Below, in pieces: positions 4,062 through 38,880 of a DNA stretch of 64,000 nucleotides. The notes beneath the pieces are model-generated. The model had not been told where the DNA came from and made no database searches. It saw nothing but the letters and a program-made list of their open reading frames with translations. The stretch lies in contig CAVWMH010000003.1 of the NCBI GenBank assembly GCA_963756075.1, forward strand, positions 21,306 through 85,305. The letters run 5' to 3'. This DNA is from Candidatus Dormiibacterota bacterium. Its GTDB lineage: Bacteria; Chloroflexota; Dormibacteria; Aeolococcales; Aeolococcaceae. The position numbers were made by a program, and so were the translations under genes. Each line of letters begins with the position of its first letter. Within the stretch, counting starts at the first letter, position 1.

Positions 4062-4129
4062 GCGCACAGTGTCGAGGCGCTCGACAAGCGCAAGCGCTCG
4101 CTCCGGGTTCTCTGTCGCTGCAGGCGTTG

Positions 4130-9646: not shown

Positions 9647-9691
9647 CGATAGCTCCTCCACATGCAATCGACGCCTGGCGTGTGCGTGAGG
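9568..9691. repeat. 124-bp duplicated block, copy A (5' leader plus first 26 codons of paralogue A)
   Basis: Aligns with 10697-10820 at a constant offset of 1129 nt with 4 mismatches in 124 by manual alignment. Confidence 0.85.
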
Positions 9692-9824
9692 CCCGGGTTC
9701 CGGACCGCTTGAATATTGTGGGCAGTTGCCTCGTCATTTGTCTCGACTGCACCAGGCGCCATCAGGAGCATCTGTCCCAGCGGAGCGTGCTCGCCGATCA
9801 CAGCTGTTCGTTGCCGTTGCCGGC

Positions 9825-10775: not shown

Positions 10776-10820
10776 CGATAGCTCCTCCACTTGCAATCGA
10801 CGCCTGGCGCGTGCGTGAGG
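10697..10820. repeat. 124-bp duplicated block, copy B (5' leader plus first 26 codons of paralogue B)
   Basis: See copy A. Both copies are followed further upstream by a shared 9-mer, CCACAATAT on the coding strand, at 9713-9721 and 10845-10853. Confidence 0.85.
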
Positions 10821-10902
10821 TCAGGCACGTCCTCAACCGCCCGGATATTGTGGCCCGTCGCACGTTCGTGCGTTGCGGATGCACGGCGCGTCACGACGAC
10901 GG

Positions 10903-11550
10903 TCATCCGTCCGAACGGCGCGCGCGTATCAAGCGCACACGCTCGTCGGCGAGCGCCGTCGGAACGTGCTCCGGCGTGCCCCCTGGCACGGCGACACTGA
11001 TGCGGCGGTCGTGCACCGGCGGCCCCGCCGGGAGTGCGGCGGGGCGTGGAAGGGGTGCGATCGCCACGAGGTCGAGCGCCGGCCGGGGCGCGACCCCGAG
11101 CGCTCCCCAGAGATCCCATGGAAGACCGCCGCCCTCCGGTGGGAGCGCCACCGAAAGGAACACCGGCCGTCCTTCGCTCGCGAGCTCGCCGGTGACGTGC
11201 TCCGCGGGGATCGTCTGCTCGTCAGCCAGCGCTCCCAGGATGCTGGAGAGCAACTGGTGCTCTGCGACCGGGGTCTTTCCCCACGCCGTAACGAGGTACC
11301 GCAGACGATAGTGATGCAGCGGCGGACGGCGCCCGGTGACGCGACCCTGCTCGTTGCGGACGTCCTCATAGTCGCCGCGGCTCCTCGCGACATCTTCGCG
11401 GATCTCCCAGAGGTACGCATCGACGACGTCGCCTGCAACGGTGTCCGCCCAGGCTCGTGTGGGGGAGTCGAAGAGCACCTCGACCTTCGAGTTGTGCAGA
11501 GCGGTTGCGCGCAGCAGCGAGCGCAGCGACGCGTCGACGTCCGCGATCAT
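10903..11550 (-). CDS. DUF4255 (Pvc16/Afp16-like) tail terminator/cap protein
   Basis: MIADVDASLRSLLRA...VVDAYLWEIREDV...YRLRYLVTAWGKTPVAEHQLLSSILGAL...LWGALG follows the DUF4255 N-terminal domain pattern. The start is set at the internal ATG, since the ORF-track extension to 11742 has no homology. The gene is divergent from the sheath gene. Confidence 0.85.
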   Translation of the reverse strand: MIADVDASLRSLLRATALHNSKVEVLFDSPTRAWADTVAGDVVDAYLWEIREDVARSRGDYEDVRNEQGRVTGRRPPLHHYRLRYLVTAWGKTPVAEHQLLSSILGALADEQTIPAEHVTGELASEGRPVFLSVALPPEGGGLPWDLWGALGVAPRPALDLVAIAPLPRPAALPAGPPVHDRRISVAVPGGTPEHVPTALADERVRLIRARRSDG

Positions 11551-11735
11551 CACGCCGAGGCTGCGGTGCACGCCCTGGTGTCGCAAGGGCGGAAGGGGTC
11601 GCAGGAGGGGAAGCCGGCATTGCACCTTCGGGCAATCGTGTCTTCCCTGAAGGTTGCCCTTGCGCACCTCGTGGACGTTGCATGCGTGTGCGACTCTCGA
11701 GCGAACCACGTGTTCCATCCGTGAGGAGACTGCGC

Positions 11736-13265
11736 ATGCCAACGTATCTGTCGCCTGGCGTTTATGTCCAAGAGGTGTCGTCGGGCTCGAAACCGATCGA
11801 AGGGGTCGGCACCGCGGTTGCCGCGTTCGTCGGCCTCACCGAGCGGGGTCCGGCCAATACGCCGACCCTGGTCACCAACTGGACTCAATTCAACACCGTG
11901 TTCGGTGACTTCGTCGAGGGGTCGTATCTCGCGCACGCGGTCTACGGGTACTTCCTCAACGGTGGCGGGTCTGCATACGTGGTGCGCGTCGGTTCGGATG
12001 GCGCTGGGGAGCAGCCGAGTGCGAGAGGGGAGCTGGCCGCGCGGGAGGAGCCCGGCCGCGCGGTGTACCGGATCACCGCCGCCGAGGGCGGGCCCGCGGG
12101 TGACGACATCAGCGTCGAGATCGGCGACCCCAGCGAGGCCGGCGAAGACACGTTCAAGGTCACGGTGTCACGCGGCGGCAAGGTCGAGGAGACGTTCGAC
12201 AACGTCAGCACGAAGCGCGGTTCGAACAACGCAGCGACCGTCGTCAAAGCCCGCTCGAAGCTCATTCGTCTCGAGGAGGTCGGGACCGGCGGCGCGATCA
12301 CCCTACCCGAGAAGGCGAGCGTCAAGCTGAGCGGCGGAACGGCCGTGACCCAGGTGCGTGTAACCGCCGACGACTACGTCGGCAATTCCGCTGATCGCAC
12401 CGGCTTCGCGGGGCTCGAGGCGGTCGATGAAGTCACCATGCTGAGCGTTCCCGACGTGATGGCCGCATACCAGCGCGGCATCATCGACCTCGAGGCTGTG
12501 CAGGCGGTGCAGCTCGCGATGATCGCCCACTGCGAGTTGATGGGCGACAGGGTGGCGATCCTCGATGCGCCACCGTCGCTGAATGCCCAGCAGGTCAAGG
12601 AATGGCGCCAGGACAAGGCCGGGTACGACTCGAAATACGCGGCGCTGTACTGGCCGTGGATCAAGGTGTTCGATCCGCTCAAGGGCCAGGGCATGCTGAT
12701 TCCGCCGAGCGGCCACATGGCAGGGATCTGGGCGCGCAACGACGACACGCGCGGCGTGCACAAGGCACCAGCCAATGAGGTGGTACGCGGCGCGATCAGC
12801 CTCGAATTGCAGATCACCAAGGGCGAGCACGACCAGCTGAATCCTTCAGGCATCAACTGCATTCGCGCGTTTCCTGGCCGAGGCGTCAGGGTATGGGGTG
12901 CGCGCACCATCTCGAGTGATCCCGAGTGGCGGTACCTCAACGTCCGCCGCCTCTTCAACTACGTCGAAGAGTCCATCCTCGAAGGGACTCAGTGGGTGGT
13001 GTTCGAGCCCAACGACTCGCGCTTGTGGGACGCGGTGAAGCGCAACGTCTCGGCGTTCCTCCGCAGGGTCTGGCGCGATGGCGCGCTCTTCGGCACCAGC
13101 GCCGGCGAGGCGTTCTTCGTCAAATGCGATGCGGAGAACAACACGCAGGACACGATCGACATCGGTCAGCTGATCATCGATGTCGGGATCGCTCCCGTGA
13201 AGCCGGCCGAGTTTGTCATCTTCCGCATCGCACAGTTCGCCGGCGGCGCCGCCGTCAGCGAGTGA
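11736..13265 (+). CDS. contractile tail sheath protein (Afp2-4/Cis2-like)
   Basis: MPTYLSPGVYVQEVSSGSKPIEGVGTAVAAFVG is the canonical sheath N-terminus. The C-terminal blocks GINCIRAFPGRGVRVWGARTIS and RYLNVRRLFNYVEESI are present. GAGGAG lies 7 nt upstream of ATG 11736. Confidence 0.95.
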   Translation: MPTYLSPGVYVQEVSSGSKPIEGVGTAVAAFVGLTERGPANTPTLVTNWTQFNTVFGDFVEGSYLAHAVYGYFLNGGGSAYVVRVGSDGAGEQPSARGELAAREEPGRAVYRITAAEGGPAGDDISVEIGDPSEAGEDTFKVTVSRGGKVEETFDNVSTKRGSNNAATVVKARSKLIRLEEVGTGGAITLPEKASVKLSGGTAVTQVRVTADDYVGNSADRTGFAGLEAVDEVTMLSVPDVMAAYQRGIIDLEAVQAVQLAMIAHCELMGDRVAILDAPPSLNAQQVKEWRQDKAGYDSKYAALYWPWIKVFDPLKGQGMLIPPSGHMAGIWARNDDTRGVHKAPANEVVRGAISLELQITKGEHDQLNPSGINCIRAFPGRGVRVWGARTISSDPEWRYLNVRRLFNYVEESILEGTQWVVFEPNDSRLWDAVKRNVSAFLRRVWRDGALFGTSAGEAFFVKCDAENNTQDTIDIGQLIIDVGIAPVKPAEFVIFRIAQFAGGAAVSE

Positions 13266-13275
13266 GGGAGTAGAA

Positions 13276-13740
13276 ATGCCAGCTGGTCTTGGTCCGAGCA
13301 TGCCCAACGACGCCATCTCGGCGGCACGTTTCTCCATCACCGTGGATGGCTACGAGATCGCGCAATTCTCCGAGCTCACCGGAATCACCACCGAGGTCGA
13401 GGTGATCGACTTCATGGAAAACGGCTCCAGTGGGGCCAATATCCTGAAGAAGCTCCCCGGCAAGCGCAAGCCGCCGACGATCACGCTCCGCCGCGGCAAG
13501 AACACCTCGATGGAGCTCTGGGCGTGGCACGAGTCGGTGGTGCACGGCGACATCGTCGGCGCGCGCAAGAGCGGTTCCATCGTGATGTACGGGTACGACG
13601 GAACCCCGGTGGCGCGCTACCACTTCCACGACGGATGGCCTGCGAAGATCGCGATCAGCGCGCTCAAGGCAGGGTCGAGCGAGGTGCTCATGGAGGAGGT
13701 CACGATCGTATGTGAGTGGCTCGAGCGGGTGGCTCCGTGA
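13276..13740 (+). CDS. tail tube protein (T4 gp19 / Afp1-like)
   Basis: ISAARFSITVDGYEIAQFSELTGITTEVEVIDFMENG...GKRKPPTITLRRG...ELWAWHE, 154 aa, directly after the sheath gene with a GGGAG RBS. Confidence 0.9.
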   Translation: MPAGLGPSMPNDAISAARFSITVDGYEIAQFSELTGITTEVEVIDFMENGSSGANILKKLPGKRKPPTITLRRGKNTSMELWAWHESVVHGDIVGARKSGSIVMYGYDGTPVARYHFHDGWPAKIAISALKAGSSEVLMEEVTIVCEWLERVAP

Positions 13741-14147
13741 GCCTGGCTGCGAGGGAGCCGGTCGCGATCCGCCCTGAGCTGACCACTGAGTTTCCTTTCG
13801 TGCTGCCTCGCGGCTACGTCGACCGAAAGGGCGTGGTGCACCGCGATGGTGTCATGCGCCTCGCGACAGCCCGCGACGAGATCGGGCCGCAGAGCGATCC
13901 GCGAGTCCGGCAGAACCCCGCATACATGACCGTGTTGCTCCTGGAGCGGACGGTGACCCGCCTGGGCTCACTGACCGAGGTCGATTCACACGTCATCGAG
14001 GGGCTGTTCGCATCCGACCTCGCGTTCCTGCAGGATCTCTACCGGCGCATCAACCAGGACGGTCACACCGAAGCCTTCGTCAGCTGCCCCTCGTGTCACA
14101 ACGAGTTCACGGTTGACATCGCTGGTGAACGCCCGGGGGAAGCATGA
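13737..14147 (+). CDS. conserved CIS-associated protein in the tail-assembly-chaperone position (C-terminal CxxC)
   Basis: GTG 13737 overlaps the tube gene stop (GTGA); an alternative GTG lies at 13716. It reads FPFVLPRGYVDRKGVVHRDGVMRLATARDEI...LFASDLAFLQDLYRRIN...CPSCHNEF. Its size and position resemble the P2 gpE-type chaperone slot. Confidence 0.6.
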   Translation: MSLAAREPVAIRPELTTEFPFVLPRGYVDRKGVVHRDGVMRLATARDEIGPQSDPRVRQNPAYMTVLLLERTVTRLGSLTEVDSHVIEGLFASDLAFLQDLYRRINQDGHTEAFVSCPSCHNEFTVDIAGERPGEA

Positions 14148-14308
14148 CGTACGCGGCCGACCAGCTCTTCGAGGAGGTCGCGTACGTCGCCTACTACTTC
14201 CACTGGGAACTCGACACGATTCTTGACCTGCCGCATTCGCAGCGGGTTCGCTTCATCGAAGAGATCGGCCGAATCCATCGGCAGATGGGCGAGACGGGTG
14301 AGTTCTGA
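14144..14308 (+). CDS. small (54 aa) conserved CIS-associated protein
   Basis: It is not in the ORF track because it is too short. ATG 14144 overlaps the previous stop (ATGA) and its TGA overlaps the next ATG (TGATG). It reads MTYAADQLFEEVAYVAYYFHWELDTILDLPHSQRVRFIEEIGRIHRQMGETGEF. It resembles the short DUF6760-type proteins I recall from actinobacterial CIS loci (unverified). Confidence 0.55.
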   Translation: MTYAADQLFEEVAYVAYYFHWELDTILDLPHSQRVRFIEEIGRIHRQMGETGEF

Positions 14309-14649
14309 TGCGCCTGCCATGGCAGCGGCGTAGCGCCGGACGCGTTGACGTGGACAGCGCGTCCACGCCCGAGCCGAAGCGATACGCGTGGAACGCATTG
14401 CCGGCGCTCCGTGCCGGCATCGACACGAAGCCTCCGTTGACGGCGCAGTCGGTCGAGTTCGCCGACTCGTCGAGCCGGCGCCTTCGCTCGACGGGCGAGC
14501 GGCCGCGGCTGATCCACCGGTCCGGGCTTCCGGAGGCCGCGTCCGCGGGTACGGTCCACGGGCTGGCAACGGCTTCGCTCCAGTCGCAGCGAGGCCGTCT
14601 GCCGCGGCGCGAACCCGGTGACAGGGAAGGGGACGAGCCGGAGTTCTGA
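14308..14649 (+). CDS. N-terminal segment of the DUF4157 protein, or a separate 113-aa ORF
   Basis: ATG 14308 is coupled to the previous gene. It reads AWNALPALRAGIDTKPPLTAQSVEF...RLIHRSGLPEAASAGTVHGLA. It ends at 14649 while the next frame is already open from 14513. Confidence 0.5.
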   Translation: MRLPWQRRSAGRVDVDSASTPEPKRYAWNALPALRAGIDTKPPLTAQSVEFADSSSRRLRSTGERPRLIHRSGLPEAASAGTVHGLATASLQSQRGRLPRREPGDREGDEPEF

Positions 14650-15964
14650 AGCCGACGCTGCAGCGCTTGTCAGCGTCATACCGGCATCGCCTCGGACCGT
14701 GGTCGCGCGGCGCCGCCCGACCCGCCTGCTGAGCGCCGCCGACGCGGCACCCGGCACGACCGTGCAGCGAACGGTCGAGCCCAACTCGGAAGCGCAAGCG
14801 TCGGATCTGCAAGTGGAGGAGGCGGATTTCCGAACTGACTCAGGCGGGGACACTCCGTCGCTCGCGGCTCCGCAGCCCGGGCTGCAGCACACCGTCATCC
14901 GACGCCACCGTGGGCTCGCCACTCCACGCCCGCTCGGTCTCCAGGCGCCGTTGACCTCTGATGCCACTGATCAGCCGGGTTTCGACACTGCGGCCGGTCG
15001 CCGCGACGAACGTGCCGCGCAGGAGCCAGCGCCGCGCGCCGTTGCGGCAACTGTCGGACGGTTGCACCGCGCGGATGTCACGGATGTCCAGGTACGCCGT
15101 GACCGACAGGCCGAACTGCTCGCTGCATCGGAGCACGCTCGCGCTGTGACACGCGGAGGTGAGGTCTTCATCCCCGCCTCTGAAGGACGCCTCGACGCCG
15201 GGCCCGGGCGCGGACTGCTCGCCCATGAGCTCACGCATGTCATCCAGCAGCGCCGTCTGGGGAGATCGGTCCCGCTCGAGCATTCCCCCGCGGGCCGGCG
15301 GCTCGAGGCTGATGCCGCGATGACCGAGCGGCACGTCCGCGGCGATCTTGGAGCCCCGGCACCGCCGCCCACCGCGGCGGAGCCGCTGTCGGAGCCGGTC
15401 GCAGCTTCCCACCCGGCGGCCGGTGATGACGGCGACGACGCCGCCGCCACGGCACGGGACATTCAAGACGATCTCGTCGCGTCAGGGCGGGCGTTTCGCA
15501 TGCCGGACGGATCCCTGGTGTTCCCAGGCGCGGGCGGGCGTTTCCCGGAACAACGGTCCACGCCGGTCCAGACTGCGGTCGCAGTCCAGCGGGCACCCGA
15601 GATGCCGGGCTCGGTGGAGTCACCTGCAGCGGGACCGACGGAGGTGCCCCGTCCTGCTGGAGGTTCGGATTCGGGCCTTGTACCTGCGCCAGAGTTGTGG
15701 CCTGCACCGGCTCCGGAACCATCGGTGGACGAGGCGCCACCGGCCACCGGCGAGCGACCACCGGAGACGGCGACGATCCCCGCGGTGTTCGCACCAGCAG
15801 CAGAGACGCCCGCAAACGCGCCCGCGACGGCTGTGACCGAAGAGGCCGCACCGATCGATCTCGACGACCTTGCCCGTCGCGTCTACGGGCAGGTGCGGAC
15901 CCAATTGCGATCCGAACTACTGATCGACCGCGAGCGCGCCGGACTGTTGACGGACTTTCGATGA
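14618..15964 (+). CDS. DUF4157 (eCIS core domain) protein with HExxH motif, in the tape-measure position
   Basis: DVQVRRDRQAELLAASEHARAVTRGGEVFIP...GRGLLAHELTHVIQQRRLG is the DUF4157 signature. The C-terminal half is P/A-rich and ends in the helix IDLDDLARRVYGQVRTQLRSELLIDRERAGLLTDFR. The GTG start is nominal, because the frame is open upstream to 14513. Confidence 0.8.
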   Translation: MTGKGTSRSSEADAAALVSVIPASPRTVVARRRPTRLLSAADAAPGTTVQRTVEPNSEAQASDLQVEEADFRTDSGGDTPSLAAPQPGLQHTVIRRHRGLATPRPLGLQAPLTSDATDQPGFDTAAGRRDERAAQEPAPRAVAATVGRLHRADVTDVQVRRDRQAELLAASEHARAVTRGGEVFIPASEGRLDAGPGRGLLAHELTHVIQQRRLGRSVPLEHSPAGRRLEADAAMTERHVRGDLGAPAPPPTAAEPLSEPVAASHPAAGDDGDDAAATARDIQDDLVASGRAFRMPDGSLVFPGAGGRFPEQRSTPVQTAVAVQRAPEMPGSVESPAAGPTEVPRPAGGSDSGLVPAPELWPAPAPEPSVDEAPPATGERPPETATIPAVFAPAAETPANAPATAVTEEAAPIDLDDLARRVYGQVRTQLRSELLIDRERAGLLTDFR

Positions 15965-15973
15965 GGAGACGAA

Positions 15974-16414
15974 ATGGCCAGTGACGACACGTTTGGTCTC
16001 GCACTGCGATTCACCGTTGACGTGGGCAACACCAGCCTCGGGACATGGTCGAAATGCGAAGGCATCGAGATGCATTTCGACACCGTGAAATACCAGGAGG
16101 GCGGGGCGCCAGGAGCGACCTGGAACTACACCCACTACGCGACCGGGCGCGCGAACTACGTGCCGATAAAGTTGACTCGCGCGGTGACCCCGCAAGCCTC
16201 GACCGCGCTGCTGAAATGGCTGACGCAGCAGGCAAGTTCGCCTGCCGCGCCGCAGCCCGCGACGATCACGCTTCTCGACACGAACGGACAGCAGGTTCAG
16301 CAATGGACCTTCCAGGACGTGTTCCCTACCAAGTACAGCGGTCCACGGCTCGACGCGACCAGGGCCGAGGTCGCGACGGAGGAGCTCGAGCTGACCCACC
16401 AGGGATTCATGTGA
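15974..16414 (+). CDS. tail tube-family protein, paralogue 2 (Afp5-like)
   Basis: FGLALRFTVDVGNTSLGTWSKCEGIEMHFDTVKYQEGG...YVPIKLTRAV...WTFQDVFPTKYSGPRLDA follows the gp19-type tube pattern. 146 aa. Confidence 0.85.
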   Translation: MASDDTFGLALRFTVDVGNTSLGTWSKCEGIEMHFDTVKYQEGGAPGATWNYTHYATGRANYVPIKLTRAVTPQASTALLKWLTQQASSPAAPQPATITLLDTNGQQVQQWTFQDVFPTKYSGPRLDATRAEVATEELELTHQGFM

Positions 16415-16445
16415 TGCCCGCACGAAACGGAAGGAGGGGCTGACG

Positions 16446-16880
16446 GTGCCTCCCGGGTCGAATGCGCCACGGGGCCTCGCGGCCCGATTCCAGGTGACCA
16501 TCGACGGCCAGGATCTCGGCTCGTGGTCCACGTGCAAGGGTCTCGAGGTTGATTTCCAGCACGAGACATACACGGAGCTGGGCAATAACCAGTTCATCCA
16601 CTACTTGCCGAGGGCCGCCAAGTACACGCACATCACCCTCGAGCGAGCGTGCACGGCGGAGGAGTCGACCGCGCTTCAACGCTGGCTCAGCAAAGTGGCC
16701 ATGCAGCCATCAAAAGGCACCGCCAGCATCACGCTGCACGACGCACATCAAGGCGATGTCATCACCTGGACGCTGACCGATGTCTTCCCGGCGAAGTGGA
16801 CGGGTCCTCAGCTCGACGCTGGCGTGAACAAGATGGCTATGGAAACGCTCGTGCTCGCGCACGCGGGTTTCCTGGACTGA
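16446..16880 (+). CDS. tail tube-family protein, paralogue 3
   Basis: LAARFQVTIDGQDLGSWSTCKGLEVDFQHETYTELG...YTHITLERAC...WTLTDVFPAKWTGPQLDA is clearly paralogous to 15974-16414. GTG start. Confidence 0.85.
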   Translation: MPPGSNAPRGLAARFQVTIDGQDLGSWSTCKGLEVDFQHETYTELGNNQFIHYLPRAAKYTHITLERACTAEESTALQRWLSKVAMQPSKGTASITLHDAHQGDVITWTLTDVFPAKWTGPQLDAGVNKMAMETLVLAHAGFLD

Positions 16881-16884
16881 CGCC

Positions 16885-17604
16885 ATGGCATCCGGATCCC
16901 CGCTCGCAACCGGCCTCGAGCGCGCCAGTCTGGAGGGCGCGGGGCTCGTCGTGGTGCTCGGCCTGAACCCGAAGTCGCTCTCCATTCGGAGAAACACGCA
17001 GTGGCAGGCACCGGCAAACCGAAGCCCCAGCGCGGCACAGCCCGCGAGCGCGCTATCGAGCCTGTCCGGCGCCGTCCCCGTCGGCCACGGTCAGTTGCAG
17101 TACACGCGCTCTCAGCCGGCGGTGCTCTCCATGGTGGTCTGGTTCGATCGATCGTTCGATGCCGACGGCAGCATCGACTACGAGATCAACCAGCTCCAGA
17201 ACTGGACGTGCCCCACGGAGCGAATCATCACCGGCGTGTACAGCCCGCCACGAATCACGTTCATCTGGCGCAGCCTGCACTTTATCGGCGTCATCTCCTC
17301 GCTGAACATCAACTACAAGCAGTTCGGGGTCGATGGCCTGCCGGTGCGCGCTGAAGCCACCATCTCGATCACGGAAAACCCGCCCCCGATCTCCGGCACC
17401 AACCCGACCTCTGGCGGAATCTCCGGTCGGCGCGTCCACACGTTTTCCGCAGGGGACACGCTCCATTCCGTCGCGTATGCCGAGTACGGGAACCCGGGTT
17501 TCTGGCGGGTGCTCGCCGAGGCGAACGGCGTCGACGATCCGCTCCGGATCGCCGCTGGAACCGCCCTGCTCATCCCGCCAGATCCACACTCGGTTGGTCC
17601 GTGA
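16885..17604 (+). CDS. LysM-domain tube-initiator/baseplate hub protein (Afp7-like)
   Basis: The N-terminal part is tube-like. The C-terminal LysM reads HTFSAGDTLHSVAYAEYGNPGFWRVLAEANGVDDPLRIAAGTALLIP. It sits immediately upstream of VgrG. Confidence 0.85.
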   Translation: MASGSPLATGLERASLEGAGLVVVLGLNPKSLSIRRNTQWQAPANRSPSAAQPASALSSLSGAVPVGHGQLQYTRSQPAVLSMVVWFDRSFDADGSIDYEINQLQNWTCPTERIITGVYSPPRITFIWRSLHFIGVISSLNINYKQFGVDGLPVRAEATISITENPPPISGTNPTSGGISGRRVHTFSAGDTLHSVAYAEYGNPGFWRVLAEANGVDDPLRIAAGTALLIPPDPHSVGP

Positions 17605-19340
17605 TGACGGCCGATGCGCTCACGAGCTGGCCGGGTGTCGAGATCGACGGCAGTCCCCTTTCGGACGACCTCCGTATCGGGCTGACCGGCGTGGTCGTCG
17701 ATAACGACATCCACCTTCCGGACATGTTCACGATGATCTTCGATGACCCGCAGCACGATCTCATCACGGAGGCGAGCGTGCGCGTCGGCTCGGCGGTGAC
17801 CATCAAAGCCTCGAGCGTTGGTTCCACGGACAGCGATGTGCTCATCGGCGGCGAGGTCACGGCGCTGGAGGCGAGCTACGAGAGTGGCTGGGACCGCACC
17901 ATCGTTCGTGGCTATGACAAGTCGCACCGGCTGCATCGTGGCCGGCGGACCGAGACCTATCAGAACGTCAAGGTGTCAGATGTCGCACAAACAGTCGCGA
18001 GCCGCGCCGGGCTGGACATCGGCACGATCGACGACACCGGCTCGGTGCTGCCCTTCATCTCGCAGGTGAACATCACCGACTGGGAGTTTCTGCAGGCGCG
18101 CGCGCGCGAGCTTGGATTCGAGGTTGGCGTGGTTGCCGGACAGTTCTACTTCCGCAAGCCGGCCAAGTCGAGCACCGGACCCGCGCCCGGCGACTCGGAC
18201 TCCCAAGGCGCCGAGCAACTCGTCTACGGACGCGACCTGGTGAGCTTTCGTCCGCGGATCAGCTCGTCGGCCCAGGTGACGCAAGTGAGCGTCCGTGCCT
18301 GGGATCCCGACAACAAGGTCGTGCTGGTGGGGTCCGCCGACCCGGTGGCGTCGCATGCCGACCTGACGGATGATCCTGCCAGTCTCGCCCAGAACTTCGG
18401 CTCGCCGGAGTACGTGGTGCACAATCGCCCGCTGGCGTCGCAGTCTGATGTCGACGACACCGCCAAGGCTGTGGCCGAGCATCTCGGCAGCTCGTTTGCC
18501 GAGGCCGAGGGCGTGGCCGTGGGCAACACGAAGTTGCTCGCCGGGACAGCGGTGAGCATCGCCCAGGTGGCGGATGCCTTCCAGGGAAAGTACACGCTGA
18601 GCCGGACGCGTCACGTCTTCGACGATGAAGGGTACCGGACCGAATTCGAGATCAGTGGCATGCAGGATCGGTCGACGCTCGGGCTCATGTCCCTCGGGGC
18701 CACCAACGGCGCCGCGGCGGGTGGTGCTCCACCGGTGCCTGGGGTCTTCATCGGGCAAGTCACCAACAATGATGACCCCCAGCACCTCGGCAGGCTCAAG
18801 CTCAAATTCCCGTGGCTCTCGGACGCGTATGAGAGCGACTGGGCGCGCGTCGCCGTGGTTGGCGCCGGACCCAACAGTGGCGTCGTGTTCCTGCCGGAGG
18901 TCGACGACGAGGTGCTCTGTGCCTGCGAGTTCGGTGATCTCCGCCGCGTCTTCGTGCTGAGCCCGCTGCACAACGGCAAGGACAAGCCCAGTCTTGGCGA
19001 CGGACTCGTCGACGCGGGCAAGGTCAAGCGTCGCGGGATGGTATCGCGCAAAGGGCACCGGGTGGTGTTTCTCGATGACGACTCCAAGTCGGGTATCGCA
19101 CTCATCAGCAGCGACGGCAACCTCAAGGTGTCGATGAACGAGACGAGCAGCGAGATCACGATTCACTGCAAGGGCAAGGTCACGCTCGAGACCGACAGCG
19201 ACGACATCTCGATCAAGAGCGGTGCCGACGTGACCATCCAGGCGCAGGGCAACGTCAAGGTCTCCGGCTCGAGCGGGGTCAAGGTGGACGGTGGCGGTGG
19301 TGTCGTGGAAATGGCCGGCTCACTCATCAAGCTGAACTGA
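17601..19340 (+). CDS. VgrG-like spike/hub protein (phage gpD + gp5-OB, Afp8-like)
   Basis: The start overlaps the LysM gene stop (GTGATG). The gpD-like N-terminal half includes DWEFLQARARELGFEV. The OB/spike block reads GQVTNNDDPQHLGRLKLKFPWLSDAYESDWARVAVVGAGPNSGVVFLPEVDDEVL. The C-terminus has beta-helix repeats. Confidence 0.9.
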   Translation: MMTADALTSWPGVEIDGSPLSDDLRIGLTGVVVDNDIHLPDMFTMIFDDPQHDLITEASVRVGSAVTIKASSVGSTDSDVLIGGEVTALEASYESGWDRTIVRGYDKSHRLHRGRRTETYQNVKVSDVAQTVASRAGLDIGTIDDTGSVLPFISQVNITDWEFLQARARELGFEVGVVAGQFYFRKPAKSSTGPAPGDSDSQGAEQLVYGRDLVSFRPRISSSAQVTQVSVRAWDPDNKVVLVGSADPVASHADLTDDPASLAQNFGSPEYVVHNRPLASQSDVDDTAKAVAEHLGSSFAEAEGVAVGNTKLLAGTAVSIAQVADAFQGKYTLSRTRHVFDDEGYRTEFEISGMQDRSTLGLMSLGATNGAAAGGAPPVPGVFIGQVTNNDDPQHLGRLKLKFPWLSDAYESDWARVAVVGAGPNSGVVFLPEVDDEVLCACEFGDLRRVFVLSPLHNGKDKPSLGDGLVDAGKVKRRGMVSRKGHRVVFLDDDSKSGIALISSDGNLKVSMNETSSEITIHCKGKVTLETDSDDISIKSGADVTIQAQGNVKVSGSSGVKVDGGGGVVEMAGSLIKLN

Positions 19341-19341
19341 G

Positions 19342-19728
19342 ATGGGAACACCGGCGATCGTCATGGGAGATCAGATCATGGGGACGTGCCCGATCCACAT
19401 CATCCCCAACCCCGCGACGGGCGTTCCGCAGCCGTCGCCACCTCTTCCGTTCAGCGCGCCGGTCACGGTGGGCGTCTGTCCCACCGTGCTGATCGCGGGC
19501 AAAGCGGCGGCGGTGGTGGGCTGCACGGGGTTCAACACTCCGCCGCACGTCGGACTCTTCCCTGCTGACCCGTACATGGTGCCGATCATGCAGGTCGGGA
19601 CGATCGTCAGCGGCAGTACGACGGTGCTGATCGGCGGCCAGCCCGCAGCGACCGCCTCGTCGTCGTGCACCTGCTGCGCGACGCCCGGCACGATCACTCC
19701 CACAGTTACCAGCGTGCTCATCGGGTGA
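19342..19728 (+). CDS. PAAR-like spike-tip protein (Afp10-like)
   Basis: A 128-aa protein with repeated short beta-strand blocks ending VLIAG / VLIGG / VLIG and conserved Cys/His positions. It follows VgrG directly, starting 2 nt after the VgrG stop. Confidence 0.75.
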   Translation: MGTPAIVMGDQIMGTCPIHIIPNPATGVPQPSPPLPFSAPVTVGVCPTVLIAGKAAAVVGCTGFNTPPHVGLFPADPYMVPIMQVGTIVSGSTTVLIGGQPAATASSSCTCCATPGTITPTVTSVLIG

Positions 19729-19732
19729 AGTT

Positions 19733-20143
19733 ATGGCTAAAAGTGACGATTTCATAGGGTCCGGCTGGGGCTTCCCGCTGCGCACTGACACAACCGGCGG
19801 CATCGCGCTGGTCTCGAGGGAGCGAGAGCTTGAGGAGGCGATGCGCCTCATCCTCGCCACCGCACCAGGCGAGCGGCCGATGCGCCCCGAGTTCGGGTGC
19901 GGCGTGCATGACTACGTGTTCGCCGGCACCGATGCGACCTCGGCGCGCGCCATCGCGTTCGAGGTCCGCAACTCGCTGCTGCGCTGGGAACCGCGGGTGA
20001 TCATCGAGGACGTCGACGTGGTCCCTGACGACGATGACGCTGCGCTGCTCTACATCAACGTTCACTACCGGCCGAAGGCGACCAACGACCCGCGCAACCT
20101 GGTCTTTCCCTTCTACACGATTCCAAGTGAGGGCGAGGCATGA
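19733..20143 (+). CDS. GPW/gp25 baseplate wedge protein (Afp9-like)
   Basis: GSGWGFPLRTDTTGGIALVSRERELEEAMRLILATAPGERPMRPEFGCGVHDYVF...LLRWEPRV is the classic gp25 pattern. Confidence 0.9.
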   Translation: MAKSDDFIGSGWGFPLRTDTTGGIALVSRERELEEAMRLILATAPGERPMRPEFGCGVHDYVFAGTDATSARAIAFEVRNSLLRWEPRVIIEDVDVVPDDDDAALLYINVHYRPKATNDPRNLVFPFYTIPSEGEA

Positions 20144-22090
20144 CCCTTCCCGTCCCCAACCTCGACGACCGGCGTTTCCAGGACCTCGTCGACGAGGCAA
20201 AGAGGATGGTCCAGCAGCGGTGTCCCGAGTGGACCGACCACAACGTCTCCGACCCCGGTGTCACGCTCATCGAGACGTTCGCGTGGATGACCGATCAGCT
20301 CATCTACCGTCTCAATCGGGTCCCGGACCGCCTGTACGTCAAGTTCCTCGAGCTCATCGATGTCCGGCTGTTCCCGCCCACGCCGGCGCGAACGCCTCTC
20401 ACGTTCTGGCTCGCCGCGCCGACCGAGCTCGCGCAGCGCATCCCGGTGAACACCAAGGCCGCGACCATCCGGACCGAGACCGAAAAGGCGATCGTGTTCT
20501 CGACGGTCGATGACCTCGACCTGGTGCCGTGCTCGCTCGCCTCCGTTGCCACTCAGGCAGCGGCATCTGATGAGCGTGTCGACCGGACCGAAGGACTGCA
20601 ACGTGGGGCGAGGTTCGCCGCATTCGGGACGGTACCCCGGCCCGACGATTCGCTGGTCATCGGCCTCAGCGACGCCGTTCCGCGCTGCGCCATACGCCTG
20701 CGCATGCACTGCACCATCGAGGGCGTCGGCGTGGATCCCAAGGATCCCCCGCTGGTCTGGGAAGCCTGGGACGGTGAGATCTGGCACCCGTGTGACGTCG
20801 AGGCGGACGACACCGGCGGCCTCAACCGCGACGGCGATGTGGTTTTGCACGTCGGCCGGGAACACGCCGCCGCGCTGCTCGACGGCCGGCGTGGTGGCTG
20901 GCTCCGCGCTCGCGTTGTGGCCGCGGTGGTCGGTCAGTCCTCGTACACTGCATCCCCGCAGATCCACGCGATCGAAGCAGCCACCATCGGCGGAACCGTC
21001 GACGGGGTCAACGCCGAGATAGTGACCGACGAGGTGCTCGGCATCTCCGACGGGACGTCCGGCCAGCGATTCCCGGTGCGTCACGCACCGGTGCTCGCAG
21101 GTGTCGGTGAGCCGGTCCTCGAGTGCAGCGGTGACGACGGATGGGAGGCCTGGGCCGAGGTGCAGGACTTCGGGTCATCCGGTGCTCACGACGCGGTGTT
21201 CGTGCTTGACGCTGCCGCCGGCGAGGTCCAACTCGGCCCTGCGGTCCGCCAGCCGGACGGATCGATCCGGAGTTACGGAAGGGTCCCTGCGAAAGGGGTA
21301 GCAGCTCCGGATTCGTTCCTACGCGACCGGTGGCGGGCGTGGCGGCAACGTCAGTCGCGGTGCGATTTCCGTGATGAAATCCTCCATCCCTTACGTGGCG
21401 CGCGTCGAGAACCGGCAGGCAGCCCGGGGCGGTGTCGACGGCGAGGAGCTCGAGAACGCGAAGCAGCGCGGACCGATCCTGCTGCGCACGCGGGCGCGCG
21501 CTGTCACCGTCGAGGACTTTGAGCAGCTCTCACGCGAGGCCGCTCCCGAGGTGGCACGGGTTCGCTGTCTCCCGGCCGGCGAGGGCCTGGAGGCCGGGTC
21601 GGTGCGAATCCTGGTGGTCCCCGCGGCTGCGGAGGACCGGGGTCGCCTCCGATTCGAGCAGCTCATCCCGGGCGAGGAGACCCTGCTCGCGATAGCGTCG
21701 CGCCTGGAGGAATCCCGGCTGGTGGGCACCCGCGTGCTCGTCGAGCCGCCTTTGTACCAGGGGGTCACGATCGTTGCCCGTCTGCGGTCGCGGCCGCGGG
21801 CCAGTGTGGGCCGGGTCGAAGCGGCTGCGCTCGACGCGCTGTTCCGTCACCTCAATCCCGTCAGTGGCGGCCCCGACGGCCACGGGTGGCCGTTCGGCAG
21901 ACCGGTGCAGGCCGGCGAGATCTTCTCGATCCTTCAGGCGGTTCCTGACGTTGAGCTGGTGCAGGACGTGCGCATCTTCGGCGCCGACCCCACCACCGGA
22001 GCGCGCGGTCAGGCGACCCAGCGCCTTGACGTGGCGCCCAACTCGCTGGTGTTCTCCTACGAGCACCAGGTTCGAGTCGAGTCCGCATGA
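20140..22090 (+). CDS. baseplate J / gp6-like protein (Afp11-like), interrupted by an apparent 1-nt insertion at about 21302-21315
   Basis: The N-part is ORF 20140-21522 (LPVPNLDDRRFQDLVDEAKRMVQQRCPEWTDHNVSDPGVTLIETFAWMTDQLIYRLNRVPDR). Its homology stops at ..RVPAKGVAA and resumes in the +1 frame as (R)IRSYATGGGRGGNVSRGAISVMKSSIPYVARVENRQAARGGVDGEELENAK. That frame is open from 21302, after TAG 21299-21301, to 22090. Confidence 0.85.
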
Positions 22091-22638
22091 GCGCGATGCG
22101 AGCGCTCGTGCCGGGCCTGCCGACCCCGCACCCGCTGGGGACGTTCCTCCCCGCGCTCTACCAGGAGGACCGTTTTGCCCAGGCGCTCACGAGCGGTCTC
22201 GACGAGGTGCTGAGCCCGCTGATCGCATCACTCGACAATCTCGCCGCCTACCACGACCCCGACGTGACACCCGACGACTTCCTCGCCTGGCTCGGAAGCT
22301 GGGTTGGCATGGAACTCGACGACGACTGGCCTGAAGAGCGCCGCCGCGCGCTGGTCACGCGCGCCGTGGAGATCTACCGGGTGCGCGGCACCGCTGACGG
22401 CCTGCGAGCGCATATCGAGCTTGCCACCGGGGGCCGCGTCGAGATCGTGGAGTCCGGTGGCGTTGCCTGGTCGAGGGAGGCCGGAGCAGATCTGCCCGGA
22501 CAGCCCGAGCCGCGTATGACAATACGCGTCTATGTGGATGACGCTACCGCTATCGATACGCGCGCGCTCGACCGATTGGTCAACGCATCGAAGCCCGCGC
22601 ACGTGATCCACGCATTGGAGCTAGCGACGGGAGGTTGA
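22087..22638 (+). CDS. P2 gpI-like baseplate/tail protein (Afp12-like)
   Basis: ATGA overlap with the J gene. LPALYQEDRFAQALTSGLDEVLSPL...FLAWLGSWVGMELDDDWPEERRRALVTRAVEIYRVRGTADGL follows the phage tail protein I-type pattern. Confidence 0.85.
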   Translation: MSAMRALVPGLPTPHPLGTFLPALYQEDRFAQALTSGLDEVLSPLIASLDNLAAYHDPDVTPDDFLAWLGSWVGMELDDDWPEERRRALVTRAVEIYRVRGTADGLRAHIELATGGRVEIVESGGVAWSREAGADLPGQPEPRMTIRVYVDDATAIDTRALDRLVNASKPAHVIHALELATGG

Positions 22639-22648
22639 GCGACGATCG

Positions 22649-24283
22649 ATGATCGTCTGCAAGAAGTGCGGCTTCAACAATTCTGATGCCGACGCGTTCT
22701 GCGGCTCGTGCGGTGCGTTTCTGGAGTGGACGGGTGAGAAGGTCACCCCTCCGGCAACCCCAGCGCCGTCGCCTGTAGCTTCCGAACCCGCCGAACCTGC
22801 GGAGCCGGCGCGACGCGGTGGATTCATGGCGCTTGTCCAGCAGGTGACCGCGATCGGTGTGCCAAAGAAGGAGGCCATCGCTCCGCCCGGGAGCGCCACC
22901 GGTGGGTCGATGCCCCCGACTGGGATGGCGCCCCGGCCGGCGATGCCGGCGGGCTCGGCACCGCTCGGGGCACCGGGGCCGAGGCCGATCGGTCCCGCCA
23001 GTGCACCCGGAAGCCCTGTGTTCAGCGCGCAGCCGGGGTCAACGCCAACTCCGAGCCCTCCTCGGAGCGCGCCGCCCAGCTCGCCGCCGCCATCCGGTCC
23101 GCCTCGGAGTGCACCGCCGAGCGGACCACCGACGAGCCCGCCGCTGTCATCGGCGCCGCGGAGCGCTCCTCCGTCCGGGCCACCGCCGGGCGTGACCCCG
23201 ATGAGTGGGCCGCCCACGAGCCCGCCGCCATCTGGCGTGCCGCGAAGCGCACCACCTGTCGGACCGCCGCCTGGGGCTTCGTCGCCTGCGCCGGTGGCAC
23301 CAAGCCTGCCCAAACCGACACTTCCGCCGCCAACGCTCCCGGCTCCGACCGCCCCACCCGTCCTGATCCGAGTCACCCCGGAGGTGCAGCCGGCCACGAG
23401 CCCATCGGCGTCGCCATCGCAAACCCCATCAGGCGCACCCGCGACACCCGCGGAGCCGAGCGGCGTTCAGCCGGTGGCGGTGAGGACCCGGGTCGCGCCG
23501 AAGCCAACGGTCGCGCCGCCGAGCAAGGAACTGAGTGCCGGCGACCTGATCTGCGGTCAGTGTGGCGAGGGGAACGAGCCGGTCAGGAAGTTCTGCCGCC
23601 GCTGCGGCAATTCGCTCGCCACCGCAGAGGTTGCGACAACGTCGCGGTCGCGGAGATTTCTTCCCCAGCGCAAGGCGAAGGTCCTCGCTGCCGGTGAGCG
23701 TCCGGAACACGGCAAGTTCAGCTTCGGCACCGTCGTTCGGGTCGGTAGCTACGTGATCCTGGCGGTGGTGCTCATCGGCGGCATCGCCTATGGAGCGCTG
23801 CCCCAGGTTCGGGACGCGATCAACAGCCGCATGAGCGGCGCCGTCAACGCCGTGACCGGCAGCACGCCTCGTCCGAAACCGGTTGCGGCAGCGTCGGTGA
23901 CGGCCAGCTCAGCGATCGCCGGGCATCCAGCAGCCCGAGCGATCGATCCGTACATCAACACGTACTGGGCGGCGTTATTGAGCACGGACGCTCACCCAAA
24001 ACTCACGGTGACGTTCGCTCATGCCCAGAACGTCAGCGTGATGCTGTTCATCTCAGGCAACACGGCCGCGGAGGCCTCCGAGCCGCGACCGAAGACGCTG
24101 CACATTGTTTTCTCGAACGGCAAGTCGCAGGACATCACACTCGTCGACAGCGCAAAGACGCAGCAGTTCAGCATCAATGGAGCGGAGGGCATCACCGGCA
24201 TGACGATCCAGATCATGTCGGTCTACAGCTCGACGAGCGGTAACGCGGTCGCGCTGGGCGACGTGGAATTCTTCGGATCGTAG
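22649..24283 (+). CDS. double zinc-ribbon, Pro-rich, single-pass membrane protein with C-terminal discoidin/galactose-binding-like domain
   Basis: It starts 10 nt after the gpI-like stop. The parts in order are: zinc ribbon CKKCGFNNSDADAFCGSCG; about 250 aa of P/S/A-rich sequence with degenerate SAPPSGPP units; zinc ribbon CGQCGEGNEPVRKFCRRCG; a TM helix VGSYVILAVVLIGGIAYGAL; and a C-terminal domain reading AIDPYINTYWAA...PKTLHIVFSNGKSQDITLVD...AVALGDVEFFG. Confidence 0.8.
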   Translation: MIVCKKCGFNNSDADAFCGSCGAFLEWTGEKVTPPATPAPSPVASEPAEPAEPARRGGFMALVQQVTAIGVPKKEAIAPPGSATGGSMPPTGMAPRPAMPAGSAPLGAPGPRPIGPASAPGSPVFSAQPGSTPTPSPPRSAPPSSPPPSGPPRSAPPSGPPTSPPLSSAPRSAPPSGPPPGVTPMSGPPTSPPPSGVPRSAPPVGPPPGASSPAPVAPSLPKPTLPPPTLPAPTAPPVLIRVTPEVQPATSPSASPSQTPSGAPATPAEPSGVQPVAVRTRVAPKPTVAPPSKELSAGDLICGQCGEGNEPVRKFCRRCGNSLATAEVATTSRSRRFLPQRKAKVLAAGERPEHGKFSFGTVVRVGSYVILAVVLIGGIAYGALPQVRDAINSRMSGAVNAVTGSTPRPKPVAAASVTASSAIAGHPAARAIDPYINTYWAALLSTDAHPKLTVTFAHAQNVSVMLFISGNTAAEASEPRPKTLHIVFSNGKSQDITLVDSAKTQQFSINGAEGITGMTIQIMSVYSSTSGNAVALGDVEFFGS

Positions 24284-24327
24284 TGAGCTGACGACGCGCC
24301 TGGTGTCATGCCCGGCACGCCGTGCCG

Positions 24328-25020
24328 TCAGATGAATCCCTGGCGGAGCGCGTACGCGACAGCGTGAGTGCGATTTCGCAGATGCAGCCGGCTTGTGATG
24401 TCGTGCACGATGTGTTTCACGGTGCGCTCCGAGTAGAAGAGTCGCCGGCCGATTTCATCGGTGTCGAACCCGTCCGCCATCAGGCGGAGCACGCGCACCT
24501 CGCGTTCGGTGAACCCCGAGAAGCGCAGGCCGCGCGGTGTGAGCACATCGCGCTGCAGACGACCGACGTGGTCGAGGAGCTGACCGAGCAGGTCGGGCGA
24601 CATGGCGGCGGCGCCGCTCGACGCTGCTCGAACGGCGTCGACGATACGGTCCGGTGTCGCCTCGCTTCGCCGAAGCACGCTGGACGCCCCTGCCTCCACC
24701 GCGTTCAGCAGGTCACCGTCGCCGAGGCGCGTCACCACCAGGACGACACGGCTCTCGTCGCCGACGCGAGCGGCGCGTATGGCAGCAAGCGCGGCGTCGT
24801 CGACGTCATCGGCGAGGACAACGGTGACGCCGGCGGTGACGCCGGCGGAGACCTCGTTGTCGGCGTCGAGCACCTGCACCTCCGGACGATACGCGAGCTG
24901 GGCGGCCAATCCCGCGCGCGACATCGGATCCTGTGTCCTGATGGCGAGTGCCACGCGTTGAACGCTGGCGAGGGCGACCACGGCGCGAACGGTGGCACCT
25001 GCACGTTGACGGGCACTCAA
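24328..25020 (-). CDS. LuxR/NarL-family regulator with atypical receiver-like N-domain
   Basis: The C-terminal HTH reads FTEREVRVLRLMADGFDTDEIGRRLFYSERTVKHIVHDITSRLHLRNRTHAVAYALRQGFI. The N-domain is receiver-like but lacks the usual N-terminal DD pair (ALAIRTQDP). It starts 7 nt after the stop of the upstream STAND-SARP gene. Confidence 0.8.
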   Translation of the reverse strand: MSARQRAGATVRAVVALASVQRVALAIRTQDPMSRAGLAAQLAYRPEVQVLDADNEVSAGVTAGVTVVLADDVDDAALAAIRAARVGDESRVVLVVTRLGDGDLLNAVEAGASSVLRRSEATPDRIVDAVRAASSGAAAMSPDLLGQLLDHVGRLQRDVLTPRGLRFSGFTEREVRVLRLMADGFDTDEIGRRLFYSERTVKHIVHDITSRLHLRNRTHAVAYALRQGFI

Positions 25021-25027
25021 CGCCCAC

Positions 25028-27775: not shown

Positions 27776-27892
27776 CGATCCGTGGCGCCTCTCTCCGACT
27801 CCCACAGCGAATACACACTCCCTCGGGTAGCCACGCCATGCTGACAGGCCGCCGAGCACCGGGTCAATAGCGCGGACGATTAAGCTGACGGC

Positions 27893-38758: not shown

Positions 38759-38880
38759 CGCTCCTGTCGCACAGCTCGTCATCTCGGGTCGCATCGCACG
38801 CGTCAAATGACAGCGTCGTATGACATGATAACAAAACGGGTGCGGATCAGCCGCCCCCGCCTTGAGCGGAGAATGGAGAC

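Follow-up and report, generated by a model that had tools for sequence, protein, structure and literature searches.

A probable Streptomyces-type contractile injection system in Candidatus Dormibacterota, with a CisA homologue and without a CIS-type ATPase gene

A 64-kb stretch of DNA from Candidatus Dormibacterota (contig CAVWMH010000003.1 of assembly GCA_963756075.1; hereafter, "the window") contains a locus encoding the parts of a contractile injection system (CIS). Judged from its sequence, this locus is most probably a chromosomal CIS of the type found in Streptomyces coelicolor (CIS-Sc), which falls into subtype IId of dbeCIS, a class assigned here with the best match in the PDB as a proxy. 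The core components of a CIS were all found, namely a sheath with three gp19-type tube proteins, a Pvc16_N cap, a spike and baseplate set, and a DUF4157 protein. Of these, the Pvc16_N (DUF4255) cap sets extracellular contractile injection systems (eCIS) apart from phage tails (Chen 2019, Geller 2021, Vladimirov 2023). A first-pass annotation, made from the letters of the sequence without database searches, had proposed the resemblance to the Streptomyces CIS as inference only; it is now supported by the best matches in the PDB, by the sizes of Cis11 and Cis12, and by homology of the last gene product to CisA.

Similarity to the CIS of Streptomyces coelicolor

The proteins of the locus were compared with all PDB sequences, among which CIS-Sc is represented by chains of 8BKY, 8BL4, 9GTP, 9GTS, and 9GTR (Casu et al., PMC10066040, PMC12237407). 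S. coelicolor chains were the top match for the sheath, the tubes, Cis7, Cis8, Cis9, Cis11, Cis12, and Cis16, and their margin over other systems ranged from 10 to 150 orders of magnitude. For example, the 509-aa sheath (11736-13265) matched Cis2 of S. coelicolor over its full length (8bky, 2e-203; bracketed values of this form are E-values throughout), whereas the sheaths of PVC, Afp, AlgoCIS, and Anabaena were recovered at only 1e-45 to 1e-52. Similarly, residues 1-646 of the baseplate wedge J-like protein (20140-22090; 649 aa once its reading frame is restored) align with residues 1-647 of Cis11 (9gtp, 2.8e-226), and the small wedge protein, which resembles P2 gpI (22087-22638; 183 aa), aligns with residues 5-182 of the 190-aa Cis12 (9gtp_E, 3e-37).

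The baseplate wedge of CIS-Sc consists of two Cis11 and one small Cis12, and the particle is built without a tail fibre or typical tape measure. Both systems pair a Cis11 of about 650 aa with a small Cis12 of about 190 aa, and neither has a tail fibre or typical tape measure; indeed, no fibre (Afp13) or typical tape-measure (Afp14) family was detected in or around the locus, in agreement with the absence of a fibre reported by the first-pass annotation. As in the S. coelicolor locus (sco4242-sco4260), the gene for the CisA homologue lies directly past the baseplate genes, LuxR-type and large ATP-binding regulators are found close by, and a divergent promoter region, presumed in the window, precedes the sheath gene; in S. 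coelicolor, this region is located between sco4253 (sheath) and sco4254. A PAAR protein is shared with S. venezuelae. The two loci also differ in several respects. The cap gene faces the sheath gene in the window, whereas the S. coelicolor cap gene, sco4260, is non-adjacent; the window set from sheath to CisA forms one co-directional operon with overlapping junctions; two Cis1b-like genes are present; the Cis15 AAA+ ATPase is missing; and two proteins with Trp-rich repeats are encoded past the cap instead of recognisable Sco4256-58-like effectors with a single transmembrane helix. Finally, the host is Candidatus Dormibacterota and not a member of the Actinomycetota.

The same searches bear out the earlier view that the locus is neither a prophage nor a type VI secretion system (T6SS). 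No sizeable open reading frame (ORF) of the window belongs to a capsid, portal, terminase, or integrase family, or to a TssB, TssC, TssK, TssL, TssM, or ClpV family, and the only T6SS-like trace is a weak TssF match at the N-terminus of the J homologue. We further compared the locus with relatives (L001, L003, L005-L011, and L013-L019), some of which came from scanning species-representative genomes with VgrG as the seed. Genes for a phage head, packaging, or integration contiguous with the locus were found neither in the window nor within 10 kb in relatives, and families indicative of a lysis cassette, or of a tailocin-type fibre with tape measure, were not found in the window or in the relatives' flanks. 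Among predicted viral contigs (IMG/VR), the nearest sheaths share 44-54% identity with that of the window, versus 72-99% for cellular contigs. Elsewhere in the window, the sizeable ORFs are ordinary chromosomal genes, among them those for a peroxiredoxin, a luciferase-like oxidoreductase, MarR, glycosyltransferases, two-component proteins, and an enzyme of family GH65, and the G+C content is about 65% over the whole window, with no compositional island at the CIS locus.

A CisA homologue at the end of the operon

The last gene of the operon (22649-24283, + strand) encodes a 544-aa protein that the first-pass annotation had described as a membrane-anchored zinc-ribbon protein, and both zinc ribbons and a predicted transmembrane helix were indeed recovered. 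It begins with a zinc ribbon (residues 1-26; Pfam Zn_Ribbon_1 and DZR match this protein), a linker rich in Pro, Ser, and Ala that spans about 260 aa (about 30-290), and a second zinc ribbon (302-323). These are followed by a basic juxtamembrane stretch, one predicted transmembrane helix (about 357-388), and a C-terminal domain of about 130-155 aa (about 416-544). SCO4242, or CisA, has been described in the same terms: an unstructured N-terminus, a Cys-rich zinc-binding region of about 50 aa before the transmembrane helix, and a carbohydrate-related C-terminal domain of about 150 aa. The CisA sequence used for comparison covers residues 1-310 (structure file, eLife supplement), and the C-terminal domains were compared by description only; over these 310 residues the domain layout is that of the window protein. 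BLASTP against them returned a collinear alignment from the second ribbon through the transmembrane helix (29% identity over 85 aa, 2e-6), and hhalign, with a profile of 25 homologues, aligned the family with CisA at a probability of 98.4% (4e-15).

The C-terminal domain points in the same direction. An AlphaFold2 (AF2) model of residues 291-544 (predicted local distance difference test, pLDDT, 81) consists of the ribbon, a long helix, and a beta-sandwich, and Foldseek matched the sandwich to CBM32 and F5-8 type C modules with target-normalised template modelling (TM) scores of 0.6-0.77. NCBIfam, in turn, assigned the domain to an NADase-type glycan-binding domain (3.5e-14). Based on these comparisons, the last gene encodes a true CisA homologue with a predicted CBM32-like, extracytoplasmic glycan-binding domain. 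The CisA-like family comprises about 160 clusters, including proteins from Chloroflexi metagenome-assembled genomes (MAGs) and from one Streptosporangiaceae MAG.

CisA is embedded in the membrane of the producer, and the only CisA-containing system that has been studied experimentally acts on the producer cell, a point that bears on how the window system may be used. One alternative is a classical eCIS akin to Afp, PVC, and AlgoCIS, whose particles are released by lysis and inject a DUF4157-linked toxin cargo into other organisms. Every core eCIS family is present in the window, DUF4157/eCIS_core included, and DUF4157 proteins are tube-lumen cargo in AlgoCIS; furthermore, SCO4242 was first read as a fibre-like surface binder (Vladimirov et al.), and the CBM32-like domain could bind the surface of a target. 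We nevertheless consider this reading unlikely. The extracellular systems (subtypes Ia and Ib) share the core families but are equipped with tail fibres, a tape measure, an ATPase, and a large Cis12/Afp12 and are released from the cell, whereas the window has no tail-fibre gene, no AAA+ loader, and no recognisable toxin domain. Moreover, the protein in the "fibre position" carries a transmembrane helix and is homologous to membrane-embedded CisA, and the structural proteins are far closer to cytoplasmic CIS-Sc than to Afp, PVC, and AlgoCIS.

It is quite unlikely, too, that the locus encodes a membrane-anchored, contact-dependent weapon that fires outward into neighbouring cells in the manner of a T6SS (compare T6SS-iv and the haloarchaeal CIS). 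Such a weapon would fit the CisA homologue, as a membrane anchor, encoded beside the baseplate genes, the PAAR-VgrG spike, and a phylum that is not known for a Streptomyces-like developmental cycle. However, neither a TssJLM-like trans-envelope complex nor a ClpV recycler was found in the window, and the action of the one studied CisA-containing system on its producer speaks against it as well.

Gene order and extent of the locus

The conserved unit extends over about 8471-28243 of the window and includes two proteins past the cap as well as a pair of LuxR and MalT/SARP regulators. From the sheath to the CisA homologue, all genes lie in a single co-directional operon (11736-24283, + strand), while the cap and two Trp-rich-repeat proteins, here called up1 and up2, make up a divergent operon on the opposite strand. 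The cap, or tail terminator (Cis16, Afp16; 215 aa; 10903-11550, - strand), was identified by Pfam Pvc16_N (1e-28) and by Cis16 in PDB 9gts (9e-35). The cap and sheath genes are separated by 185 bp (11551-11735), a divergent intergenic region that, from its position, presumably holds both promoters; no sigma-70-like consensus was found in it.

The sheath (Phage_sheath_1, 7e-26; Phage_sheath_1C, 2e-21) is followed by inner tube 1 (Cis1a; 146 aa; 13300-13740; Phage_T4_gp19, 2e-28; PDB 8bl4_v Cis1a, 1e-18) and by a 136-aa protein with a C-terminal CxxC motif that resembles tail-assembly chaperones (13737-14147; PHROG 508, 3e-6). The latter matched no Pfam family and is 53-69% identical to proteins of Chloroflexota and Actinomycetota loci. 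Next come a 54-aa DUF6760 protein (14144-14308; Pfam DUF6760, 8e-13), whose gene occupies the same position in every related locus but one, the Anaerolineae locus L014, which gave no match, and the frame-broken DUF4157/eCIS_core gene (about 555 aa; 14308-15964; Pfam eCIS_core, PF13699, 7e-17).

Two further tube genes lie downstream: tube 2, which is Cis1b-like (146 aa; 15974-16414; Pfam gp19, 2e-27; PDB 9gtp_a Cis1b, 6e-19), and tube 3, a second Cis1b-like protein (144 aa; 16446-16880; Pfam gp19, 8e-28; PDB 9gtp_a Cis1b, 2.5e-22). These two stand in tandem in the Dormibacterota loci and are 41-43% identical to each other, while the loci of Chloroflexia (L011 and L013) and Limnocylindrales (L019) have a single Cis1b-like gene. 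The second copy therefore looks like a lineage-specific duplication of a tube-initiator layer protein.

The remainder of the operon encodes the spike and baseplate: the tube initiator with a LysM C-terminus (Cis7; 239 aa; 16885-17604; Pfam CIS_tube, 4e-14; PDB 9gtp_P, "LysM domain-containing protein", 1.6e-28), the VgrG-like spike (Cis8; 579 aa; 17601-19340; Phage_base_V, 3e-20, and GPD; PDB 9gtr_q Cis8, 1e-89), the PAAR tip (Cis10; 128 aa; 19342-19728; Pfam PAAR_motif, 6e-11), the gp25-like sheath initiator (Cis9; 136 aa; 19733-20143; GPW_gp25, 6e-24; PDB 9gtp_V, 1.6e-47), the frame-broken J-like protein, whose two pieces matched TssF and Baseplate_J, and the small wedge protein (Tail_P2_I, 4e-20; NCBIfam tail_TIGR02242, 1e-31), ahead of the CisA homologue. 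The PDB sequence search at E ≤ 1 returned nothing for the 136-aa protein, DUF6760, DUF4157, the CisA-like protein, up1, or up2, and scans of the region for Rfam families, tRNAs, promoters, and terminators gave no useful result, with zero tRNA genes and zero Rfam matches.

Overall, the gene order given by the first-pass annotation, from the cap to the zinc-ribbon membrane protein, holds, with each core call confirmed by Pfam profile searches, and all the overlapping junctions that it had quoted are present (GTGA at 13737, ATGA at 14144, TGATG at 14308, GTGATG at 17601, and ATGA at 20140 and 22087). Its statement that gaps of 2-10 nt separate the remaining genes is partly right: gaps of 1-10 nt do occur, alongside two of about 31-34 nt, between the sheath stop (13265) and the start of tube 1 (13300) and between the tube-2 stop (16414) and the start of tube 3 (16446). 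The cap gene, which it had placed at 10903-11742, is corrected to the coordinates given above, with the sheath starting at the ATG at 11736 and tube 1 at 13300. As for its description of the system as complete-looking, the core families are all present, but the reading frame is broken in two genes, and the locus lacks the AAA+ ATPase that canonical eCIS loci encode.

Absence of a CIS-type ATPase

The AAA+ ATPase (Afp15/Cis15), which combines a winged-helix domain (WHD) with PF00004, is said in the literature to be "invariably" encoded by eCIS loci. In AlgoCIS, cargo is loaded through AAA+ proteins, and deletion of the ATPase in S. coelicolor abolishes the biological effect, although particles still form. 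We searched six-frame translations with a profile built from three CIS ATPases at E ≤ 1. No match was found in any frame of the 64-kb window, in the ten loci of the Dormibacterota clade (L001, L003, L005-L010, L016, and L017), or in the Chloroflexia loci L011 and L013. The same profile gave clear matches in L014, L015, L018, and L019, and in these four loci (L014, Anaerolineae; L015, Acidimicrobiaceae; L018; L019, Limnocylindrales) a WHD and AAA protein of about 700 aa is encoded beside the cap; three of these four proteins had supplied the profile. The ATPase-less layout is kept across a sheath divergence of 78-99%.

The comparison with L018 and L019 is particularly direct. In L019 (Limnocylindrales/Chloroflexota, GCA_036558545.1), the operon order from the sheath to the CisA-like gene is that of the window, and in L018 it is largely so; the sheaths of both are 71-75% identical to the window sheath. 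Yet both loci encode a 705-718-aa WHD and AAA ATPase directly past the cap, where the window has up1 and up2, and both have one Cis1b-like gene instead of two.

Several proteins were considered as the missing ATPase and rejected. A PF00004 match at 3537-3932 (- strand) is small, has no WHD, and scores about 0 bits against the CIS-ATPase profile; the generic AAA ORF in which it lies (3232-3932, - strand) is frame-broken and is not conserved near the CIS locus. The 1071-aa regulator that flanks the locus is a MalT-like STAND/SARP regulator and not an AAA+ unfoldase. In the Chloroflexia loci, an ORF of about 780 aa lies directly upstream of, and divergent from, the sheath gene (L011, 1540-3891, - strand; L013, 1965-4301, - strand), in the slot that holds the cap and ATPase in other loci; no Pfam family matched it, and it was likewise rejected as the ATPase.

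Since the ATPase is absent from the locus, cargo loading would be either ATPase-independent or served by a gene elsewhere in the genome. A more far-reaching proposal is that Dormibacterota and a related group of Chloroflexia carry a conserved, CisA-coupled CIS that works without any dedicated AAA+ ATPase, with the Trp-rich/Ig-like proteins holding its slot. We regard this proposal as doubtful. Under it, these proteins might be cargo of a new class, or they might stand in for the ATPase step as a loading or adaptor factor.

Frame breaks in the DUF4157 and J-like genes

The first-pass annotation had treated the DUF4157 and J-like genes as single ORFs, whereas each is split in the window. The DUF4157 gene is covered by two ORFs that lie in different frames, 14308-14649 and 14618-15964, with the frame change situated around 14613-14650, while its homologues in L001, L006, L008, L009, L017, and L019 are single ORFs of about 549 aa. 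The J-like gene is split into 20140-21522 and 21371-22090 by one extra T at 21299, as seen by comparison with the 85%-identical locus L001, where a single ORF encodes 649 aa.

With the proteins of L001 as queries, we looked for frame breaks in the relatives. Two CIS genes are broken in the window and in each of L005, L007, L010, and L016, and eight in L003; no frame breaks were found in the CIS genes of L001, L006, L008, and L009. The breaks in the six affected loci fall at differing, non-shared positions. The broken loci reside on contigs named "contig_NNNN" (Flye-style) from ENA/MFD assemblies, which, from the names alone, we take to be long-read assemblies. Programmed frameshifting in either gene is ruled out because the relatives have single ORFs and other assemblies break elsewhere.

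Between the window and L001, the ratio of nonsynonymous to synonymous substitution rates (dN/dS) is 0.082 for the part of J upstream of the frameshift and 0.058 for the downstream part read in the restored frame, compared with 0.060 for the sheath. By this measure, purifying selection is strong (dN/dS 0.06-0.09), also in the part of J downstream of the frameshift. We conclude that both frameshifts are likely to be assembly indels and not inactivating mutations. That the locus is decaying and non-functional, with two conserved genes frameshifted and its ATPase lost, is highly improbable: the frame breaks, the missing Cis15, and further broken genes at 3.2-6.6 kb would fit such decay, but J is as constrained downstream of its frameshift as the sheath, there are no in-frame stops besides the two shifts, the breaks are non-shared and occur in apparent long-read assemblies while the same genes are intact in four others, and the conservation of the ATPase-less layout across divergent sheaths argues for a functional state.

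The DUF4157 protein, up1 and up2, and the regulators

The DUF4157 protein consists of a disordered N-terminal region, an HExxH domain (LAHELTH), a Pro/Ala-rich region, and a conserved C-terminus of about 45 aa, and its gene occupies the tape-measure/cargo position. This arrangement, in which a disordered N-terminal region is followed by DUF4157 and a C-terminal part, resembles that of AlgoCIS Cgo1. The gene is also placed like that of Tme in the CIS of S. davawensis (PMC11126660), directly upstream of the genes for the tube initiator and the baseplate. Tme, however, is a 2247-aa protein with transmembrane helices and a C-terminal endonuclease, whereas the window protein, at about 555 aa, has no transmembrane helix and no recognisable enzymatic C-terminal domain.

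In the divergent operon, up1 (316 aa; 9825-10775, - strand) and up2 (391 aa; 8471-9646, - strand) have a common N-terminus: their first 90 or so residues are near-identical and include two DGQWxWDGxxWQP motifs (DGQWWWDGxQWQP in up2), after which the sequences diverge. In up1, the Trp-rich N-terminus is followed by two Ig-like domains, which appear in its AF2 model (pLDDT 86) as beta-sandwiches; in up2, it is followed by a region of beta structure, and the C-terminal domain is helical. Neither protein has a transmembrane helix. Searches of Pfam, PHROG, NCBIfam, and the PDB with up1 and up2 gave no match, and a fold search with up1 returned generic tandem Ig-like sandwiches only (TM-score about 0.2), which permits no functional call. 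The family is tiny, with 71 clusters, and full-length homologues of up2 number about seven in 5.8e9 protein clusters.

Members of this family recur at related loci. An up2 gene adjoins the cap in L001 too, genes of the up1 family lie beside the cap in L001, L005, L006, and L016, and a gene with an up1-type N-terminus follows the CisA-like gene in L007-L010. The family is not strictly CIS-linked cargo, however, as both of the two sampled family members lie on Mb-scale contigs away from CIS genes. It is possible that up1 and up2 are cargo or accessory proteins. In five further proteins (P0177, P0180, P0182, P0184, and P0185), the Trp-rich N-terminal motif of up1 and up2 is combined with a PG_binding_1 domain, and in L018 a PG_binding_1 protein is encoded right after the CIS ATPase. 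These observations hint at a cell-wall-directed role for the accessory family.

Two regulators border the other end of the locus. A 230-aa LuxR/GerE-type regulator (24328-25020, - strand; Pfam GerE, 1e-12) is convergent with the end of the operon and occupies the same place in all Dormibacterota loci, at 76-89% identity. Beyond it, a 1071-aa protein combines a MalT-like STAND ATPase with an OmpR-type winged helix and a BTAD (SARP) domain (25028-28243, - strand; AAA_22, Trans_reg_C, and BTAD; NCBIfam MalT N-terminus, 1.6e-50), and its homologues adjoin the locus in Dormibacterota (71-79% identity) and in Chloroflexia (40-44%). GerE is a known eCIS-associated regulator domain, and BTAD is a known eCIS "shell" domain.

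Distribution of the locus

The window sheath is 92-99% identical to proteins of MAGs labelled Candidatus Dormibacterota or Dormibacteraeota; an exact look-up found no identical protein on record. The VgrG-seeded scan yielded seven loci that are fully syntenic with that of the window, six of them in Dormibacterota-labelled MAGs (L005-L008, L010, and L016) and one, L009 (DATKQX010000062.1), in a MAG labelled "Candidatus Saccharimonadales". The CIS proteins of L009 are 79-92% identical to those of the Dormibacterota loci, and it has the same flanking regulators; its label is probably a binning or labelling error. L001 and L017 (contig JRHI01000002.1 of GCA_000763215.1) are also syntenic with the window locus, and more distant loci were found in Chloroflexia, Limnocylindrales, Anaerolineae, and Acidimicrobiaceae. 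In the literature library searched, no paper was found to mention both Dormibacterota and contractile systems. The system is of a known type (IId, CIS-Sc-like) but occurs in a phylum for which no description was found, as a conserved, ATPase-less variant with different accessory genes.

Other genes in the window and in related loci

A cluster of frame-broken genes occupies 3232-6560 (- strand) of the window. It includes a cyclase gene (class III adenylate/guanylate cyclase, NB-ARC/AAA_16, and TPR) that is spread over at least four frames at about 6560-4180, and the gene of a small AAA ATPase, which is interrupted at about 3560-3730; the cluster is either a low-quality assembly stretch or a set of true pseudogenes. 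The split cyclase gene is a paralogue of an intact gene at 56556-60113 (+ strand), whose 1185-aa product has a double zinc ribbon, a class III cyclase domain, an AAA_16 STAND ATPase, and TPR repeats. The N-terminal zinc ribbon of this protein matches the same Pfam families as the ribbon of the CisA-like protein. The gene at 53738-55513 (- strand) encodes a major facilitator superfamily (MFS) transporter that carries a cyclic-nucleotide-binding domain as a C-terminal fusion, and a Crp-like regulator is encoded at 38015-38890. Together, the MFS fusion, the Crp-like regulator, and the cyclase genes suggest cyclic-nucleotide signalling in this region.

In the Anaerolineae locus L014 (13977-15050 and 15564-17045), the small Tail_P2_I (Cis12-like) baseplate protein has an FHA domain fused to its N-terminus, and its gene is followed by one for a Ser/Thr protein kinase. 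This arrangement, reminiscent of Fha/PpkA control of the T6SS, hints that the baseplate of the L014 CIS is under phospho-regulation.

Discussion

Particles of the Streptomyces type are cytoplasmic and stay in the cell, and their stress-induced firing kills the producer. By analogy with S. coelicolor, the particle encoded in the window would assemble in the cytoplasm, without tail fibres, on a simple baseplate whose wedge contains two Cis11 and one Cis12. The single-pass CisA-like protein would recruit it to the cytoplasmic membrane, with the cytoplasmic zinc-ribbon and disordered part contacting Cis11 and the outer CBM32-like domain binding a cell-envelope glycan. Sheath contraction could then push the spike and the tube-lumen cargo, for which the DUF4157 protein is the best candidate, across the producer's own membrane. 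Such firing would be expected to end in regulated death or lysis of the cell, as opposed to attack by released particles.

Several points weigh against this model. The cytoplasmic location, the contact between CisA and Cis11, and the role in cell death are all carried over from Streptomyces to Candidatus Dormibacterota, an uncultured soil phylum. Effectors of the Sco4256-58 type, which have a common N-terminus, a single transmembrane helix, and a variable C-terminus, have no recognisable counterpart in the window: up1 and up2 do share an N-terminus and differ in their C-termini, but they lack such a helix. Without a CIS-type ATPase, the system may work differently or be partly disabled, and both frameshifts could be real, very recent mutations.

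Because the ATPase is said to be invariably present and is needed in S. coelicolor, its consistent absence from this clade provides a natural test of its role. If the ATPase-free proposal is true, eCIS-type machines do not universally require an AAA+ ATPase. Studies of CisA-dependent cytoplasmic CIS have been confined to Streptomyces, where multicellular development is part of the current functional explanation. A near-complete and strongly conserved copy in Dormibacterota, with its CisA homologue, would widen the host range of this self-directed CIS type, and suggests that CIS-driven regulated cell death or lysis may be widespread among soil bacteria.

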